A stretch of 64,000 nt of DNA. It comes from a virus (lineage: Duplodnaviria > Caudoviricetes). Position 1 is the stretch's first letter; each line of letters starts with the position of its first letter. The stretch is taken from IMG/VR virus record IMGVR_UViG_2931736537_000001, positions 1 to 64,000 of that record; one strand, written 5' to 3'. The position numbers were made by a program, and so were the translations under genes. Shown in pieces: positions 7,315 to 63,755 of this stretch. A model generated the notes under the pieces. It saw nothing but the letters and a program-made list of their open reading frames with translations, had not been told where the DNA came from and did not search any database.

Positions 7315-7685
7315 TCGTCGTCCTCGGTCAGGTGCCGCAGGTCGATGGCCCAGCCGATCTGTCCGGTCGCCCGGCGGGTGCCCATGTGGATCACGCCGGG
7401 CATGTAGCCGTCGCGCAGGGGCTGCCAGTTGTGCAGCCGGTGGTCGTGCAGGGCGGCGATCAGGTCGAGGGCGAAGGCGTCGTGCGGGGGCTCGGACCGG
7501 AAGACGGCCGTCTCATGGCTGGGCGTGCCGTTGGCGACCCGCCGGTAGAGGCGGACCTCTTCCTGGCCGGTAGCCACGCTCAGCAGCAGCAGGGCGCTGT
7601 GGGCCGGTGGGGTACCGGCCGGGAGGCCGGCTGCGAGCAGGGCCCGCAGCCGGTCCGCCGACGCCTCGGTGGCGTTCAGTCCCAC
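7311..7685 (-). CDS. hypothetical protein
   Basis: 3' part of ORF 7311..7985; GTG start overlaps the previous stop. Confidence 0.55.
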   Translation of the reverse strand: MGLNATEASADRLRALLAAGLPAGTPPAHSALLLLSVATGQEEVRLYRRVANGTPSHETAVFRSEPPHDAFALDLIAALHDHRLHNWQPLRDGYMPGVIHMGTRRATGQIGWAIDLRHLTEDDE

Positions 7686-7906: not shown

Positions 7907-7946
7907 CGCCGGCCCCCCTTCCTATCCGGGTGTGTACGTGCGTCAG

Positions 7947-31845: not shown

Positions 31846-33045
31846 TCAGTCGTTCAGGATCAGCTCCTGCAGCTCCTCGAACTCCCTGGGGGAGAGGCGC
31901 TCCTTCAGTCCCGTGTAGATGTCCTTCGGGGTGGTCACTGCGATGACGCCTCGCTCGGCGAGGGTGGCGACCGTTCCCGACGGGCTCTGCTGGCCGGAGC
32001 CACCGGTGCCGGAACCAGTGTCCCGTCCCGCGGGGTTGGTGGTGACCAGCGACGTGTCGGGCTTGGCCTCGCCCTGGCCCTGGTCGGCATCCTGCGTCTT
32101 CTCGAGGTCGGTGCTGCGCTGCCCAGGAACCGAGGAGTCCCCGCCGGCGTCTGACCGGTCGGCATCCGGCTGCGGGTTGCCCTGTCCGGCGTCCCGCTGC
32201 TGGGTGTTGTCCCCGGCCGGCGGCGCTCCCTGCTCCTGGAGGTCGCTGCCCTGCGTCTCGTTGGACTGCGGCGTGCCGGGGAGCTGCTGCTCCTCGAGCG
32301 ACACCTTGCTCTTCACGATGGCCTCGGCCTGCGCCAGGGACAGCTGCCCGTCGACGTACGCCTGCTGCAGGTCCTGACGGAGGCCGGCCAGGACGGTCGC
32401 TGCCTCCTTGATCGGCAGGAGCCGTTCGCCGCCGAACTCGAGCTCCAGGCCCTTCTGCTTGCACCAGTGGTCGATGACCGCCTGCTGGAGCGGCTCGATC
32501 AGCTTCAGCAGCTTGATCTTGTGGGAGATGGCCGTCTGGGAGATGCCTCCGAGCTTCTTCGACAGCTCCCGCTGCGAGATGCCGAGTTCTTCCAGGGCGG
32601 CCTGGTACTCCGCGCCCTCTTCGATCGGGTCGAGGCCGAGACGCTGCTCGTTCTCCTTGATGGCGGACAGTCGCAGCGAGCCGTTCTCCGCGACGGTCTT
32701 CCTCACGAAGACCGGGACTTTCTCCAGGCCCTTCATCTGCGCTGCGGCCAGTCGGCGGTGGCCGTGCAGCACGACATAGGGCTTGCCCGACTTCTCGACG
32801 TAGTCCTGGTGCTGCGGGTAGTGCGTCACGTACGCGGCAGCGGGGACGACGGTGAGCGCTTGGACGACACCGTCGCCGTCGAAGGATTCGGCAAGTCCTT
32901 CGACAGCACGGAGCTTCTTACGTCCGTTCTCCGGGCTGGGCAGGAGGTCCGACACAGGGACCTCGGCGGTTCCCTTACTGAAGAGACGCTGCTGTCCCGC
33001 TGCCTGGCGGGCCTGGTTGAGGCTGAGGTTCGGCATTCCGGCCAT
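31846..33045 (-). CDS. parB: ParB-family partition protein
   Basis: LLPSPENGRK, LAES, HGHRRLAAA, ENEQR..LDPIEE, SQRELSKKLG.SQTAISH (HTH). Confidence 0.9.
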   Translation of the reverse strand: MAGMPNLSLNQARQAAGQQRLFSKGTAEVPVSDLLPSPENGRKKLRAVEGLAESFDGDGVVQALTVVPAAAYVTHYPQHQDYVEKSGKPYVVLHGHRRLAAAQMKGLEKVPVFVRKTVAENGSLRLSAIKENEQRLGLDPIEEGAEYQAALEELGISQRELSKKLGGISQTAISHKIKLLKLIEPLQQAVIDHWCKQKGLELEFGGERLLPIKEAATVLAGLRQDLQQAYVDGQLSLAQAEAIVKSKVSLEEQQLPGTPQSNETQGSDLQEQGAPPAGDNTQQRDAGQGNPQPDADRSDAGGDSSVPGQRSTDLEKTQDADQGQGEAKPDTSLVTTNPAGRDTGSGTGGSGQQSPSGTVATLAERGVIAVTTPKDIYTGLKERLSPREFEELQELILND

Positions 33046-54723: not shown

Positions 54724-54975
54724 TCACAGCTCCCGGTGGATCACCTCGACGCCGTCGGCCCACGTCCGCACCGGCTCCCGTTCCTCGCCGGCGTCCACCT
54801 CGAGCGTGACGGTCACCCCGCGGACGCTGCCGTGCGTCCCGACCAGCGCCCGGAACTTGCGCAGGGCCACCTCGCCGTCGGCCCAGGTCCCCTCGATCGC
54901 CGGGCCGCCCTTGCGGAACGTCATCCGTACGTGGAAGTCCCCGCCGTCGGAGGGCTCGGCGGGCGGGGTACTCAC
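54724..54975 (-). CDS. small hypothetical protein coupled to the recombinase
   Basis: GTGA overlap with the recombinase stop. Confidence 0.55.
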   Translation of the reverse strand: MSTPPAEPSDGGDFHVRMTFRKGGPAIEGTWADGEVALRKFRALVGTHGSVRGVTVTLEVDAGEEREPVRTWADGVEVIHREL

Positions 54976-56141
54976 TGCTGCTCCGCGGCGCGCTGCTTCT
55001 CGCTCACCTTGTGCCAGGGGTTCTCCGCCCGGCTCTGCGCCCGGTCGAGGTACTCCTTCTTCACCGTGGCGCTGCCCGGCTTCCACCGGCCCTGCTTCGT
55101 CGGGTCGCCGCCGGCGTCCGCGATCTCCTGGGCGCCGCCGCGTCGCAGGCCGTGCGCGGTGATGTCCTGCCAGTTGGGCAGGTCGGCGGCGTAGGCCATG
55201 CCCCGGATCCAGTCGTTGACGGCGTCGCCGGTGACGAAGTCGCCCCGGACCGTGGCGGTGGCCCGGGACTGCAGCGTCCCGGCGACCGTCAGGGCCCGCA
55301 GCACCGGCCCCGAGTCGACGCCGAGCCGGTGCAGGCAGTTCAGCCAGTCCCGGGTGGCCTGCACCGGGTCGTACAGGCCCTCGTCGCCGGCGGAGGGCAC
55401 CCAGGTGTCCTCACCGTGGGCATCCTGGTCGGTCTTGGAGTAGGCGACCCACTGGGCCACGCCGCCGTCCTCGACGGTCAGGTCCTCGATCGTCAGGTCG
55501 GCCAGTTCGATCCGCCGGTTGAGGGCCTTGCGGCCGACGACCACCACGAACCGGTTCCGCAGCCCGATGGGGTGGCGCAGGTCGCAGGTGTCGACCATCG
55601 CCCGGGCCATCGCGGCCGTGATGGCCGGCGCCTTACGGACCCGGTTCCGCTTCAGCCACTGCTTGCGGTACTCGCGCAGCAGGCCGCGGGCCTTGCTGGT
55701 GCCGGGCTTCTTGTCGTCGGGCATCCACGTCCGCACGGCCGACAGGTACGTGCTGATCGTGTTCGGGCTCATGCCCCGGGCGATCAGGTGCGCGCAGTAC
55801 TCCACGTACGTCGCCGTCGTGCAGGGCCGCGCGACCCGGCCCATCCCGTCGCACCACTCTTCGAACAGCTTGCGCTGGTTCTTGTAGTTGCGGTCCGTGT
55901 TGGCCGGCGCCGACTCTTCCTCCAGGCGCCGGGCGGTCTCCTCGGACACCTCGAAGTCCCGGCGGGTGTACCGCGGGGCGGTGGCCTCGCTCGGCAGGGC
56001 CTCGCCGGGGTAGAGGATTGTGTGCTGGTCGACGGGCGGCTTGGCGGGCGCGGCCGGAAGTGGCACGGACGGCAGGACTTCGTCGTCGTCGACCAGCTCG
56101 GCGTCGACGACCTCGGTGGGCTCGAGTTCGGACGTGGTCAT
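54972..56141 (-). CDS. Cre-like tyrosine recombinase (putative multimer resolvase)
   Basis: ANT.R.Y...F..WC N-domain; GLRNR...RRIEL, SKTDQ, HGLRRGGA, GRW, EY (R-K-H-R-W-Y catalytic set). Confidence 0.9.
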   Translation of the reverse strand: MTTSELEPTEVVDAELVDDDEVLPSVPLPAAPAKPPVDQHTILYPGEALPSEATAPRYTRRDFEVSEETARRLEEESAPANTDRNYKNQRKLFEEWCDGMGRVARPCTTATYVEYCAHLIARGMSPNTISTYLSAVRTWMPDDKKPGTSKARGLLREYRKQWLKRNRVRKAPAITAAMARAMVDTCDLRHPIGLRNRFVVVVGRKALNRRIELADLTIEDLTVEDGGVAQWVAYSKTDQDAHGEDTWVPSAGDEGLYDPVQATRDWLNCLHRLGVDSGPVLRALTVAGTLQSRATATVRGDFVTGDAVNDWIRGMAYAADLPNWQDITAHGLRRGGAQEIADAGGDPTKQGRWKPGSATVKKEYLDRAQSRAENPWHKVSEKQRAAEQQ

Positions 56142-56419
56142 GGCGTCACCGAGCCGCAGCCGGGCGGGGAGCGACGGGCATGGACGGGGCCTTTCGGGAG
56201 CGGGCGGCGCGGGGAGGGACGCCGTACAGCTAGTTGATCACTGTTTGTGGTGGTTAGCGGTGTGTTGGGCGGCACACCGCCGGGCGGAGGCGGCACATGG
56301 GCGGCCGGTCGTGCCTGCGGCCGGGCAACCGCAGGTCACAGCCTGATCAACACGGCCGCACCGTACGGACGGGCGGGAGACGCTGGGCACCACCACACCA
56401 CCTTGGGGGGAGCACTCCT

Positions 56420-56683
56420 GTGTCCGACGAGCCGAGCTACCGCGACGTCCAGTCCGCGGTGAGGGTCGAGAAGTTCCGCATATGGTTCGCTTGGTTCTCC
56501 GGCGGCTTCATCATGCTCGGCATCGCGCTCGCCTGCCAGGACATCGCCGTCGTCAGCGTCATCACGCAGGTCCTGCTGGTCGTGCTCGGCATCCTGTCCA
56601 CCATCGCCGCGGTGACGATGTCCAACCGGCTCAACCGCCGGGCCGCAGAGGCCCGCCGGCGGGTCCTCGGCGACGACATGTGA
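56420..56683 (+). CDS. small two-TM membrane protein
   Basis: GGGAG RBS; two hydrophobic helices. Confidence 0.7.
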   Translation: MSDEPSYRDVQSAVRVEKFRIWFAWFSGGFIMLGIALACQDIAVVSVITQVLLVVLGILSTIAAVTMSNRLNRRAAEARRRVLGDDM

Positions 56684-56699: not shown

Positions 56700-57293
56700 T
56701 CAGGTCTCCGGGGGCCGCTCCTCGGCGGCAGGGCGCGCGATGGACGGCTCCCGCTGAGTGAGCACCAGCGCCACGGTGTCGAGGAGCCGACGGCCGAGGT
56801 GCTGCAGCTCCTGCTCGTGCGCGGCCAGGGCCGTACGGCTGGCGGTGCTCCGGAACTCCAGGGCCTCGCGCAGCGCGTCGGCGGCATACGCCATACGCCC
56901 CAGCGCCTGGTCCTCGTCGTGGGCGGTCGGCACCGGGGCCGTCGGCAGCCGCTCGAGGAGCTGCTGCAGCTCGGCGTCCGGGACCGCAGCCGCGGGCCGG
57001 TTCTCCAGGAGTGCGCCGCGCAGCGTCTCGGCGATCGGCTGGGCGGGCACATGGAGACGGTCCGGATCGGCCCGGCGGGCGGCGACGAAGCGGGCGAAGA
57101 CACTGGTGTCCTCGGGCATGGGCAGTCCTAGGGTTGCGGCGAGAAGCGCCTCGGCGGAGATGCCGTGCGCGTAGCGGCAGGTGGGGTTCTGGCAGGCGTG
57201 CACGTTACTGGCCGGCGCGAAGTACAGAGCCGTGCCGTGCACCGGGCAGCAGCACAACTCGTCGCACCGGTGCAGTGCGCGGACGGCGGTCAC
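56700..57293 (-). CDS. hypothetical protein with N-terminal zinc finger
   Basis: CPVH...ACQNPTC; GTGA overlap. Confidence 0.6.
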   Translation of the reverse strand: MTAVRALHRCDELCCCPVHGTALYFAPASNVHACQNPTCRYAHGISAEALLAATLGLPMPEDTSVFARFVAARRADPDRLHVPAQPIAETLRGALLENRPAAAVPDAELQQLLERLPTAPVPTAHDEDQALGRMAYAADALREALEFRSTASRTALAAHEQELQHLGRRLLDTVALVLTQREPSIARPAAEERPPET

Positions 57294-57802
57294 GGGCGCA
57301 TCCCGGTCAGCCGCTCGGCCACCGGTACGGAGGCGATGTCCCGGGCGCCGGCCACGCCCTCGCTCAGCTCGGTCAGTTCGCGGCGCACGTCCCCGTGCTC
57401 GGCGGTTCCGACCAGGGCTGCGGACAGCATCTGCCCGACCGGGTCGCTGTAGGCGTGCTCGCCCCGGCGCACCGCGCGCAGCCGGTGCAGGTTCACGACG
57501 TCCCAGGCCCGGTTGTTGGACTCGCGCACGGCGACGCTGGCGTCCCGGGCGGCCTGCAGGGAGCGCAGTATGCCGACGACGTTGTGGCTGGCGAGGTGCT
57601 CGAGGACCTTCGCCTCCAGCAGCGCGGGGGCGCTCGGCCGGGTGGCGTCGTCGTCGTGGTGCCAGTCGCAGCCGTCCAACGGGCAGGCGTAGCACGGCCA
57701 GAGCTCCAGGGCCGCGCGGCTGTAGTGCGGCGCCTGGCCGTGGTCGGCCTTCCACAGGCCCGCATGCTTCGCGGCCTGGAGGGCGCTGGATGCGTGGCTC
57801 AC
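57290..57802 (-). CDS. hypothetical protein with C2H2-like motif
   Basis: GGAGG RBS; YACPLDGCDW...HLASH. Confidence 0.65.
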   Translation of the reverse strand: MSHASSALQAAKHAGLWKADHGQAPHYSRAALELWPCYACPLDGCDWHHDDDATRPSAPALLEAKVLEHLASHNVVGILRSLQAARDASVAVRESNNRAWDVVNLHRLRAVRRGEHAYSDPVGQMLSAALVGTAEHGDVRRELTELSEGVAGARDIASVPVAERLTGMRP

Positions 57803-57816
57803 GTCGGGGACCTCCG

Positions 57817-58149
57817 TCACTCGGGGGTGGGAAGGCCGACGAGGTGCTGCGGCGGCTCGTCGTCGCCGTAGACCAGGGCGAGTTGGTGGATGACGGCGGT
57901 GAGGCCGGGCAGCAGAGTCCGAGCGCCGGACTCGTTGGGCGGGGTGAAGCCCTCGAGGTCGAAGTTCAGCGCCCACGCGTGCAGGAAGCTGTCGTCGCGC
58001 CGGGCCCGGGCGGAGGCCGCCTCGTACAAGTCGAGGACGCGCAGCACAGCCTTGTGCAGCTCGGGCGCGGCATCGGCTGGGGCGCCAGCGATCGTCTCGC
58101 GTAGCCAGGTGACGGTCTCGTCCGTTCGGTCCGGCAGGGGCTCGGTCAC
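57817..58149 (-). CDS. hypothetical protein (DUF6221-like)
   Basis: WLR...K..LRVLDLY...LALVY. Confidence 0.55.
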   Translation of the reverse strand: MTEPLPDRTDETVTWLRETIAGAPADAAPELHKAVLRVLDLYEAASARARRDDSFLHAWALNFDLEGFTPPNESGARTLLPGLTAVIHQLALVYGDDEPPQHLVGLPTPE

Positions 58150-59303
58150 TGCATCTCCGTTCGGGGGCGGATTGCGGACGGGCGCAAGTTCTTCCCGTCT
58201 TCATGGGCTTGGACGTGCGAGCGAGCATCGACGACGAACATGGCCCACCGGGTGTTACTGCGGAACTTGAAGTCGGAGATCACGCGGTCCGCATTCAGTA
58301 GGTTGCTCAGTGATCCCAGTCCGGGAAACAGGTAGTTGCCGACTGATCCAAGGGCCATCGTGCCCAGGGTGCGCAACAGGGTCGGTCGATGCTGGATTCG
58401 AAGCGCCTCATCACGAGCCGCGTCAATGAGCTGTTCGACCTGCTGCGCCAGTGCCGTTGCAGTGCCGGCGGGCGAGGGGCGCCCTGTGAGGAACTCCCGC
58501 AGGTCCTTGATGCGCTTGTCGCTGCGCAAGTCGGAGATGTAACCGTGGTAGGCCCCTCGGGGAGTCAACCTCTCAGCGCTTCGGAGGTGAAGGATTTCCT
58601 CAATGGCCGTGATCTGGGTTGCGTGAAATTGCGCCCCATCGAGGTCATCACCGCCGGTCGTCTGCCAGAGGCTGGGCAGCACCCCGGAGCCGGAGTTGAT
58701 GATGACGTCCATCGGGCCGAGGCCGAGAGCGTCCGCGATCAGGAACTGGGAGAGTTGGTGCAGATCTGCCCACACGCCGAGCCATGGGGTCTCAGTGTGC
58801 TGGATGGGCGCCAGCGAGCAAGTGTAACCACCGGACTCCATGGCGTGCGTGAGGTGATCGCGCAGCCGACTGTGCTGGGCCCAGCGGCGCGCGTACTTGC
58901 GGTTGCGTGCGGGGTCGGCCGCCGCCCCGGGGCCATCGGCGTGCTGCTCCGCCCAGAGGGCCCGCAACATCCGGAGGCCGTCTGCGCCTGCCTCCTCGGC
59001 AGTCTTCGCCAACTGGGGGTCGTCAGAGACAAACTTCACGAAGTCAAGGTTCTGCATGTCCGCCGGACAATGCCTTCGCTTCAGAAACCACAGCTCGTCG
59101 TAGCAGAGTGCTAGTCCGTTCGCGTTCTCCAGGACTGCGTTCGGCCAACCGATGCGTCCATCGGGTCGATAGATGTAGGCATGGTCGAAGAAGGCGGGAG
59201 CGAAGTCGCCTAGGAACGCCCGACGTTTCGTCGGCCGCCAGCCCCCCGCCTGTGAGGTCCCTGGAACCATGACAGTGGGCTGCTGCGGTTGGTCGTTGTC
59301 CAT
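58146..59303 (-). CDS. hypothetical protein of atypical (lower-GC) composition
   Basis: 385-aa ORF; GGAGAGG RBS; many A/T-ending codons. Confidence 0.75.
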   Translation of the reverse strand: MDNDQPQQPTVMVPGTSQAGGWRPTKRRAFLGDFAPAFFDHAYIYRPDGRIGWPNAVLENANGLALCYDELWFLKRRHCPADMQNLDFVKFVSDDPQLAKTAEEAGADGLRMLRALWAEQHADGPGAAADPARNRKYARRWAQHSRLRDHLTHAMESGGYTCSLAPIQHTETPWLGVWADLHQLSQFLIADALGLGPMDVIINSGSGVLPSLWQTTGGDDLDGAQFHATQITAIEEILHLRSAERLTPRGAYHGYISDLRSDKRIKDLREFLTGRPSPAGTATALAQQVEQLIDAARDEALRIQHRPTLLRTLGTMALGSVGNYLFPGLGSLSNLLNADRVISDFKFRSNTRWAMFVVDARSHVQAHEDGKNLRPSAIRPRTEMQ

Positions 59304-59335
59304 GCCCTCTCCCCCTCAGGATCGTTCCTGACGAA

Positions 59336-59369
59336 CCAGCCTCGTATAAGGGAATTTATACGAGGGTCC
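59336..59369. other. loxP-like recombination site
   Basis: CCAG-CCTCGTATA-[AGGGAATT]-TATACGAGG-GTCC: 9-bp perfect arms, 8-bp asymmetric spacer; TCGTATA/TATACGA core identical to loxP. Confidence 0.7.
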
Positions 59370-59619
59370 CTACGCGGTCCGCCACGACACCATGTCCGCA
59401 GGGGGAGAACCAGTACGACGTCGGGAGTCCGCCCCGGCCGCGCACGTAGCTCTGCACCCCGGCGCCGCACTCCAGGCACGGTGGCAGCGGCCAGTCCTCG
59501 GGGTAAGGGAGGCCACCGGCTTCGAACACCTCCTTGCGGAGGTCCAGGACCCGGTCGAGGGACTCGATCCGCTCGAGCGGGAGGATTACCCGGCCGTCGA
59601 GATCACGTGATGTCGGCAT
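59356..59619 (-). CDS. small hypothetical protein ending inside the lox-like site
   Basis: CLECG...PCGH. Confidence 0.55.
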   Translation of the reverse strand: MPTSRDLDGRVILPLERIESLDRVLDLRKEVFEAGGLPYPEDWPLPPCLECGAGVQSYVRGRGGLPTSYWFSPCGHGVVADRVGTLV

Positions 59620-62408: not shown

Positions 62409-62516
62409 CCATCCGCCGGAACGCACGTACGCCGAACGGCGCGGGCCTCTCCCGGAAGGGGACGGCCCTGCACCATTCGGCGTACGGTTCCGATGTCGAG
62501 TCAGAACGGAGCCAGT

Positions 62517-63755
62517 ATGCCTCTCTCCAGTGACGAGCACATCGGTACGCGCGTGCGGATCGCCAGAAACGCCGCCGGCCTCACACAAGTCGAACTCGCC
62601 GACTTCCTCAACCGGGCCGAGAGCTGGATGGCGAACGTCGAGTCCGGCCGCCAGGCCCTCGACCGCTTCTCCGTCATCACAGCGATCGCCGACCGCTGCG
62701 ACGTGGACGTGGTCTGGCTGCTGGGCCAGCCCTACCGGCTGCAGCGCGGCGGCGGCAGCCTCGCCCACGCGCACATCCCCGCCCTGCGCACGGGCCTTCG
62801 CCGGGCCGGCCTGATCCTGTCCGGCCACCCCGGGCTCAGCCCCCAGGGCCCGCCGGCCGACCTCACGGACATGCGCCGCCGCTCCCGCGCGGCGAACGCC
62901 GCCCGCCAGGCCGCGGACCTGCCGAAGGTCGCCACCCTCCTGCCCCACATGATCGAGGACCTCAACACGACCCTGCTCTTCGCGCACGACCGCGGCCGCG
63001 ACGACGTCCTGCGGCTGCTCGTCGACGCCGCCCGCACCGCACGGATGGCCCTCAACCAGCTCGGATACCCCGACTTGGCCTGGATCGCCGCCGAGGTGGC
63101 GGCCGGCGCGGCCGGGCAGCTCGACGACCCGGTCGTCAAGGGCGCGGTCGCGTGGGACCGATGCGGCGCGCTGCTGCATCAGGCCTCGCTGAAGGACACG
63201 GTCGCGGTCGCCGACGCGGCGCTGCGTGACCTCGAGCCGCACACCACCGGACAGGACAGCAAGGCGATCTCCCTGCGCGGCGCCCTGCACCTGCGGTGCG
63301 CCATCGCACACGCGCGCGGCAACCAGAAGTCCGACGCCTGGGCGAGGATCGACGCCGCCCTGGACGACGCCAACCGGCTCGGCGAGGGCTGGTACGACGT
63401 CGACAGCCACACCGTGTTCGGCCGCGGCACCGTCGCGGTGCACGCCGCCGAGGCGGGCGTCGAGGTCGACCAGCCGGACACCGGGCTGAAGAAGGTGCCG
63501 GCCGTGACCGTCGGGGAGGTGCCGAGTCGAGAGCGGCGCACGCACTACGCCATCGACGAGGCGAGGGCCCTGCACCGCATGGGCAAGAGCCCCTCGGCCG
63601 TCCAGAAGCTACGCGCGGCCGCCGCGGACGCCCCGTTCTACGTGCACGCCGACCCCATGGCGAGGGCGCTGGTGAGCGACATGGCCCGCATCGGAGTGCC
63701 GTCGCAGAAGAGCGCCCTGTCGAGCCTGATTCGGCACATGGAGCTGGTGCACTGA
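62517..63755 (+). CDS. XRE-family HTH regulator with helical-repeat C-terminus
   Basis: IG.RVR.AR...GLTQVELA..L.R.ESW.ANVESG; TVFG. Confidence 0.9.
   Translation: MPLSSDEHIGTRVRIARNAAGLTQVELADFLNRAESWMANVESGRQALDRFSVITAIADRCDVDVVWLLGQPYRLQRGGGSLAHAHIPALRTGLRRAGLILSGHPGLSPQGPPADLTDMRRRSRAANAARQAADLPKVATLLPHMIEDLNTTLLFAHDRGRDDVLRLLVDAARTARMALNQLGYPDLAWIAAEVAAGAAGQLDDPVVKGAVAWDRCGALLHQASLKDTVAVADAALRDLEPHTTGQDSKAISLRGALHLRCAIAHARGNQKSDAWARIDAALDDANRLGEGWYDVDSHTVFGRGTVAVHAAEAGVEVDQPDTGLKKVPAVTVGEVPSRERRTHYAIDEARALHRMGKSPSAVQKLRAAAADAPFYVHADPMARALVSDMARIGVPSQKSALSSLIRHMELVH

Follow-up and report, generated by a model that had tools for sequence, protein, structure and literature searches.

A lox-like site kept upstream of a Cre-type recombinase gene in Streptomyces plasmids and phage-plasmids is very probably the crossover site of the recombinase

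The sequence analyzed here (the window, 64,000 nucleotides) is the first 64 kb of a 141,694-bp IMG/VR record that is rated 97% complete. Matches to PHROGs identify a large terminase, a portal, a tape measure protein, and an endolysin among the products of the record, which also carries a ParB-type partition gene (31846 to 33045, minus strand) in which PF02195 matches above its cutoff at 32668 to 32964. The Pfam models PF05065 (capsid) and PF04860 (portal) found no match in the record, the portal and terminase having been recovered with PHROGs. Both ends of the record (positions 1 to 120 and 141,560 to 141,694) consist of G/C homopolymer runs without a terminal repeat. The last 3.5 kb and the first 3.5 kb map to positions 141,664 to 146,957 and then 148,493 to 150,999 of NZ_CP054917.1, and this adjacency of the two ends indicates that the molecule is circular or circularly permuted. 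NZ_CP054917.1 is itself recorded as linear. On the basis of its terminase, portal, tape measure, endolysin, and ParB genes, we classify the replicon as a phage-plasmid. A prior interpretation of the same DNA (the sequence-only reading) had called it a P1-like plasmid-prophage; the genes for a phage-plasmid lifestyle are present, and the term "P1-like" holds for that lifestyle only. A blastn search of phages with the 5.8-kb region of interest recovered only Streptomyces phage Gilgamesh, at 3% coverage.

Within the window, a 34-bp lox-like site occupies positions 59336 to 59369. The plus strand reads CCAGCCTCGTATA-AGGGAATT-TATACGAGGGTCC, with arms at 59336 to 59348 and 59357 to 59369 and a spacer at 59349 to 59356, and the minus strand, which is the strand of the recombinase gene, reads GGACCCTCGTATA-AATTCCCT-TATACGAGGCTGG. 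A repeat finder reports a perfect 10-6-10 inverted repeat, with arms at 59340 to 59349 and 59356 to 59365 separated by 6 nucleotides (nt); in the 13-8-13 register of lox sites, 10 of the 13 arm positions are symmetric. The letters given for this site in the sequence-only reading are identical to those that we re-read, and the 9-bp arms and 8-bp spacer described there are the same repeat in the lox register.

The 34-bp site is not a chance feature. When up to 2 mismatches are allowed, TCGTATA-N8-TATACGA occurs at one place in the window and in 0 of 100 dinucleotide-preserving shuffles. For the 10-nt half-site, when up to 1 mismatch is allowed, there are three occurrences in the window versus a mean of 0.32 in the shuffles, and two of the three are the arms of the site itself. 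The third (CCTCGTACAA, 58020 to 58029, 1 mismatch) is situated inside a 110-amino-acid (aa) open reading frame (ORF) 1.3 kb from the site, and its presence is within what chance allows. The entire 141,694-bp record contains one copy of the site at up to 3 mismatches.

The site is flanked on both sides by ORFs of the minus strand. Upstream, an 87-aa ORF without a family match (59356 to 59619) ends within the site, such that its TAA stop codon forms part of an arm. Downstream, a leader with a purine-rich ribosome-binding stretch (59304 to 59335, minus strand) leads to the start codon of the first gene, which encodes a 385-aa protein (P0002; 58146 to 59303, minus strand). P0002 has no match in Pfam, PHROG, NCBIfam, or PADLOC. 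Its gene is a lineage-specific insertion: positions 58164 to 59307 have no counterpart in the closest relative (L005), tblastn detects no relative of P0002 in the other 68 loci, while the site persists, and the G+C content over the gene is 0.67, as opposed to about 0.72 elsewhere. It had been allowed that the palindrome might be only an operator for the 58146–59303 gene. That possibility fails and is rejected, since P0002 is an insertion that is absent from L005 and the other 68 loci while the site is kept, and the site is thus not a private operator of P0002. The look-alikes of P0002 in a protein atlas are hypothetical proteins, with DUF6236 assigned to 12% of the members of one cluster, and its leader and N terminus resemble the small ORF that follows the site in Streptomyces atratus-type plasmids (L003 and L008).

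Between P0002 and the recombinase gene are three further ORFs on the same strand and one on the opposite strand. The 110-aa ORF (57817 to 58149, minus strand) overlaps the P0002 stop codon and is the first gene after the site in two relatives (L005 and L009). Two more minus-strand ORFs lie at about 56700 to 57800, as judged from a blastn alignment of window positions 56720 to 58163 to L004 and from the annotation of L004. All three are common to NZ_CP054917.1, where two are homologous to genes intervening between the site and the integrase gene. A probable 128-aa ORF on the plus strand (56297 to 56683) occupies the interval between this cargo and the recombinase gene; its third-position G+C content is 0.87, and its PHROG match is weak (E = 0.0098). 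If this ORF is real, the recombinase gene in the lineage of the window needs its own promoter, which it probably has. A PADLOC search with six proteins of the site region yielded no match. On the other side of the site, 3 kb upstream and on the opposite strand, there is a gene for a 420-aa XRE-type regulator (62493 to 63755; phrog_5823, E = 1e-67).

The recombinase (P0001, 389 aa; 54972 to 56141, minus strand) is of the Cre type by profile, fold, and catalytic residues. Searches of Pfam, PHROG, and NCBIfam return weak integrase or Xer matches, and as a single sequence searched against the PDB, P0001 matches Cre and Tre with E values of 0.02 to 0.4. A profile built from 39 relatives matches Cre with an E value of 8e-17 (64.5 bits, Cre residues 38 to 331), and the next best matches are to a XerC-like protein (4.9e-7) and XerD (3.5e-6). 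The AlphaFold model of P0001 has a mean pLDDT of 74, with the first 60 residues disordered; in a Foldseek search with this model, ranks 1 to 30 are all Cre or Tre (E values from 4.6e-10, TM score by target of about 0.65), followed by Xer and lambda integrase (from 1.9e-5). Among 39 recombinase sequences, R195, K236, R333, W353, and Y364 show no variation, and the conservation of H330 is at least 90%. These residues align with the SGHSAR, GGW, and NYI segments of Cre, with Trp replacing the second His, so that the R-K-H-R-W-Y set is kept. A Cre-like tyrosine recombinase about 3.2 kb from the site had been pointed out from the sequence alone, and the gap measures 3,194 bp. Residues 13 to 24 of P0001 (about 56070 to 56105, minus strand) contain an acidic motif, D-A-E-L-V … L-P, that is at least 90% conserved in the 39 recombinases. 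This motif falls in a low-confidence part of the model, the alignment to Cre beginning only at profile position 70, and it may be a docking motif for a partner.

The association of site and recombinase extends across the relatives of P0001. Our protein-side analysis covered 54 loci that encode such relatives (36 genome loci and 18 viral loci, among which L013 and L042 are duplicates, as are L017 and L046, and L023 is nearly the same as L034), and each was searched for an 18-nt core, GTATAATTTCCCTTATAC, with up to 4 mismatches. The core is present exactly once in 40 of the 54 loci and always lies upstream of the recombinase gene in a constant orientation. In 35 of these 40 loci, the distance from the site to the start of the tblastn match is 29 to 1,023 bp. 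The longer gaps belong to the clade of the window (2,250 to 2,854 bp in L005, L006, L007, and L009), and the 3,194-bp gap in the window itself is due to inserted genes. In one of these relatives (L009, 3883 to 4982), the recombinase frame is broken, with an open frame of only 96 aa from the start of the match, and the upstream site is kept with one change.

The 14 loci that lack the core comprise 5 gene fragments (L025, L029, L032, L033, and L039) and 9 distant or partial relatives with 28 to 38% identity, one of which (L030) offers only 164 bp of upstream sequence to search. Among the fragments, L029 is a truncated chromosomal copy of the recombinase gene with 93% identity. A plausible site of its own was found near only one of the distant relatives without the core: in L038, which is chromosomal and whose recombinase is 28% identical, a lox-like palindrome, CTGGCTCTTGATA-ATGTTCCT-TCTCTAGAGCCAG (7908 to 7941), lies 93 bp upstream of the gene, with 11 of 13 positions symmetric and a spacer similar to that of the family.

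The converse search, beginning with the DNA, gives the same association. Across all of IMG/VR, 14 stretches contain the exact core; 9 of them are contigs from the protein-side set and 5 are new, and a relative of P0001 lies downstream in 13 of the 14. Of the 5 new stretches, 4 encode recombinases that are 45 to 48% identical and had been missed by the protein search, and one of these 4 (L070) has a perfect 13-8-13 site. The sole stretch without a recombinase (L083) has unrelated, AT-rich arms. Across the loci of both analyses, the recombinase gene is the only constant neighbor of the site, and no regulator gene travels with it. The pairing of site and recombinase that was proposed for this one locus is therefore a property of the family, the core being found in 40 of 54 recombinase loci and the recombinase in 13 of 14 core stretches.

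Plasmid records display the same arrangement, often in a more compact form. The 5.8-kb query matched 51 PLSDB records, mostly over its recombinase part, and in several Streptomyces plasmids the site region is directly beside the integrase gene. In NZ_CP109329.1, the site is about 200 bp upstream of the integrase gene with a small ORF between them, and L003 and L008 likewise have the order site, small ORF, recombinase. In L023, L026, L034, and pFP11, the recombinase gene starts directly after the site, which in pFP11 is 17 bp before a gene annotated as "site-specific integrase." When PLSDB was queried with 46 nt around the site, 29 Streptomyces records matched, 28 of them at one place each. The exception, NZ_CP109593.1 (48,614 bp), has two cores spaced by exactly half its length, and 1,742 of 1,742 compared bases are identical between the halves, which marks the record as a head-to-tail dimer, either real or a product of assembly, whose 24,307-bp unit contains the site and the recombinase gene. 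We therefore rejected this record (L063, L065, and L067) as a natural two-site arrangement.

Counting that of the window, there are 41 sites with 37 distinct sequences, and the spacer is 8 bp long in all 41. Among the 37 distinct sites, arm positions 8 to 13 (CGTATA) are nearly invariant on both sides, and strong conservation is also seen at positions 3, 5, and 6 on the left and at positions 3, 4, and 6 on the right. Positions 10 to 13 read TATA in 36 to 37 of the 37 left arms. A T occupies position 7 in 20 of these left arms, and its complement, A, is found in 23 of the 37 right arms; the window has both the T and the A. The spacer, A-(T/A)-TTCCCT, is almost invariant and as conserved as the arms, and its near-invariance holds down to 45% protein identity. 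Arm symmetry ranges from 5 to 12 of 13 positions and is at least 10 in 20 of the 41 sites. Symmetric co-variation between the arms is weak, in that only positions 2 and 7 exceed shuffles (12 and 24 of 1,000, respectively), and A/G variation at arm position 12 is confined to the right side and never occurs on the left. In the vicinity of the 41 recombinase genes, there is no other recurrent 13-8-13 palindrome in the best 25 of 150 other palindromes.

Variants of the arms follow the clades of the recombinase tree, which is expected for linked DNA and so does not constitute independent evidence. Five pairs of related plasmids are discordant: their mosaic breakpoints fall in the right arm or immediately past it, and a similar difference separates the window from L005. 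These breakpoints would be compatible with crossover in the spacer and are not decisive. Their position, in or just beyond the right arm, and the occurrence of the commonest right arm in many lineages prevent their assignment to the spacer, and we rejected them as proof of spacer crossover. In lineages with a left arm starting GTAGCC or GTACCC, a conserved GTTACC is located 4 nt upstream of that arm (e.g., in L017 of the GTAGCC class, 7650 to 7662) and forms a short imperfect inverted repeat with the outer arm bases; it may be an accessory element.

That the site is kept just upstream of the recombinase gene across this family of Streptomyces plasmids and phage-plasmids indicates that it is very probably the recombinase's own crossover site. 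The fuller reading, which we regard as probable, is that the element is the lox-type core site of the 54972–56141 enzyme, with dimer resolution as its main job and a probable additional role as a promoter or leader. Each of the two 13-bp arms would be bound by one recombinase monomer, and after synapsis of two such sites, strand exchange would take place over the asymmetric 8-bp spacer, as it does in Cre/loxP. Given a single site per replicon, the element would serve mainly to resolve dimers of the circular phage-plasmid to monomers for ParB-based partition, and it might also circularize incoming phage DNA. Of the features expected of multimer resolution, a single site is seen in 28 of the 29 PLSDB records and in the record of the window, and the latter also has a ParB partition gene. 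From such comparisons of sequence we infer binding, strand exchange, multimer resolution, promoter activity, and autoregulation alike. Running counter to this reading are a spacer that is as conserved as the arms, the modest symmetry and weak co-variation of the arms, the 3.2-kb gap with a probable ORF on the opposite strand, and the 9 relatives (28 to 38% identity) that lack the core.

The conservation of the spacer points to a second function. Read toward the recombinase gene, the end of the left arm and the start of the spacer spell TATAAT in 32 of the 41 sites and TATAAA in 6, including that of the window. In all 41 sites, an ORF of at least 40 codons, preceded by a purine-rich ribosome-binding site, starts 4 to 67 nt after the right arm, and the ORF upstream ends at or inside the site, such that the site takes up the short interval ahead of the first recombinase-side gene. 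A near-invariant spacer containing TATAAT, followed by a ribosome-binding site and an ORF, suggests that the site probably doubles as a promoter or leader of the downstream genes, and a promoter would explain the conservation of the spacer most simply, more so than would a crossover region. Occupancy of the site by the recombinase could then damp the expression of those genes. For a sigma-70-type promoter, a −35 hexamer would be expected 16 to 18 bp upstream of the −10 hexamer, and a scan for consensus promoters found no −35/−10 pair in the window.

A more specific version of this reading can be put forward only tentatively: a dual-purpose element, in which the crossover site has a spacer that supplies the −10 element of a promoter reading toward a variable slot for cargo genes and, for most lineages, toward the recombinase gene as well, such that occupancy couples copy state to expression and the slot is a preferred landing place. 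If so, plasmid copy state (dimer or monomer, and the number of sites) would be coupled to expression of the recombinase and of the genes in the slot, and the slot behind the site would preferentially receive genes such as the 385-aa insertion.

The main rival to a crossover site is that the element is a promoter and operator only, bound by the recombinase as a pure repressor or by some other regulator, with the crossover site elsewhere or missing from the plasmid. The TATAAT in 32 of 41 sites, the ribosome-binding site and ORF 4 to 67 nt after all 41, and the near-invariance of an asymmetric spacer down to 45% protein identity all accord with this rival, as do the A/G variation at position 12 of only the right arm, where a transcript could start, and the many sites with only 5 to 9 of 13 positions symmetric. 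We nonetheless consider it unlikely. The element is 34 bp in extent and conserved out to arm position 3 on both sides, which is more than a dimeric operator would be expected to span and is in keeping with a Cre-type footprint, and the inner seven bases of both arms are those of loxP. Among the best 25 of 150 other palindromes near the 41 recombinase genes, no further 13-8-13 palindrome recurs. Moreover, the recombinase gene rather than a regulator is the constant neighbor, the window scan detected no −35/−10 pair, and the roles of promoter and crossover site can coexist.

It is very improbable that the element is instead an attP-like core for chromosomal integration with a partner site in the host genome. 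Records do annotate the gene as an integrase, and there are chromosomal relatives, namely, the truncated copy with 93% identity (L029) and the one with 28% identity (L038). Set against this, the elements are plasmids or phage-plasmids with a partition gene of their own, the nearest solved relative is Cre and not the lambda-type integrases, and the chromosomal L029 fragment has no site. In addition, the core is simple and symmetric, and no arm-type repeats were noticed, this not having been a systematic search.

Less probable still, to the point that we rejected it, is that the inverted repeat acts as an RNA hairpin, for example, as a terminator or as an element for processing or stability, located after the upstream ORF and ahead of the downstream genes. 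The repeat can fold into a 10-bp stem with a 6-nt loop, a structure that includes the stop codon of the upstream ORF, and inner positions 10 to 13 have 13 G-U-compatible changes on the sense strand versus 0 C-A changes. Counted across the whole arms, however, the changes have no strand bias (24 G-U-compatible versus 20 C-A, with 83 other mismatches in 481 cells), no run of T follows, the terminator scan found none, and conservation is highest in the loop (the spacer), which is unexpected for a plain hairpin.

The recombinase and its presumptive crossover site most resemble Cre/loxP of phage P1. P0001, whose nearest solved relative is Cre, has Trp at the position of the second His, and the two systems share the 13-8-13 layout, a site upstream of the recombinase gene, and one site per replicon. 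When compared to the P1 record (NC_005856) with the recombinase gene downstream in both, each arm of the window site matches loxP at 9 of 13 bases, including all seven inner bases, and the spacers, both of 8 bp, have 3 of 8 bases in common. The observation in the sequence-only reading that the inner TCGTATA/TATACGA and the spacer length are identical to those of loxP, while the outer bases differ, agrees with NC_005856. The order in P1 (lox, the small gene cra, and cre) parallels the site, small ORF, and recombinase in L003 and L008, and in both cases the host replicon is a phage living as a plasmid.

The two systems also differ in several respects. The likeness of P0001 to Cre as single proteins is marginal (E values of 0.02 to 0.4), and the N terminus of P0001 is extended by about 60 residues that are conserved and acidic. 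The outer arm bases and the spacer of the Streptomyces site differ from those of loxP, and its arms are imperfect. Unlike that of loxP, the spacer of this family is nearly invariant and contains TATAAT, and 3.2 kb separates the site from the gene in the window. The Streptomyces pair has a high-G+C actinomycete as its host, and its recombination activity is predicted.

Other Cre-type pairs, such as Vika/vox, Nigri/nox, Panto/pox, and the YR series, are described, in the parts of the reports covered here, as having been discovered by the same logic of a Cre-like gene with a lox-like palindrome nearby (PMC3553980, PMC10250229). According to the main text of the latter, active targets have a G(T)-A-T(G)-A motif beside the spacer and a T at arm position 7, and the window site has both of these features (PMC10250229). 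The tested targets presented there have at most about 2 asymmetries, and many sites of the Streptomyces family are more asymmetric than this (PMC10250229). The mining screens, as the same text outlines them, applied tblastn from Cre, Vika, Nigri, and Panto and required arms of 13 to 15 bp with up to 2 asymmetries within 1 kb, filters that the window site, with 10 of 13 positions symmetric and a distance of 3.2 kb, would fail (PMC10250229). This comparison was confined to that main text, which is accompanied by a supplementary list of some 500 candidate pairs and in which the terms "Streptomyces," "Actinobacteria," and "Actinomyc" are absent (PMC10250229).

If the site is the target of the recombinase, the likely job of many "integrase" genes of Streptomyces plasmids and phage-plasmids would be to keep circular replicons monomeric, each with a defined target, and the Cre/lox type would extend to high-G+C Gram-positive hosts. 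That the inner arm bases are those of loxP, though the proteins barely align one to one, bears on how enzymes of the Cre type read DNA. The pair is also a candidate Streptomyces-native recombinase and target with natural arm variants and, as such, a possible tool for actinomycete engineering alongside Cre.

Site-specific recombination systems of this general kind exist in enterobacterial plasmids. The rfsF site lies upstream of an operon that ends in resD, and the ResD protein resembles Cre. Like the pair considered here, ResD/rfsF of F-type and IncR plasmids is a plasmid tyrosine-recombinase system with a named gene and site and with cargo inserted beside the site, as set out in the part of the report covered (PMC9412624). 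It differs in having enterobacterial hosts, and the likeness is one of description.

Neither a Cre-type system nor a lox-like site of Streptomyces is described in the literature covered, which did not extend to supplementary materials or to the first reports on pFP11 and pZL12. The account of Streptomyces plasmid-phages in PMC4487206, in the part covered and again leaving aside the original pFP11 and pZL12 papers, mentions integrases only as possible integration functions and no lox-like site. The same part describes pZL12 and pSLE1 as circular Streptomyces plasmids with phage particle genes and ParAB (PMC4487206), and by this description, the replicon of the window is of the same type. Beside the phage packaging and tail genes, the record also encodes an FtsK/SpoIIIE-like protein of the Streptomyces conjugation type (record positions 119,932 to 122,472; L061, 15932 to 18472), and the element may have two modes of movement, as a phage and by conjugation.
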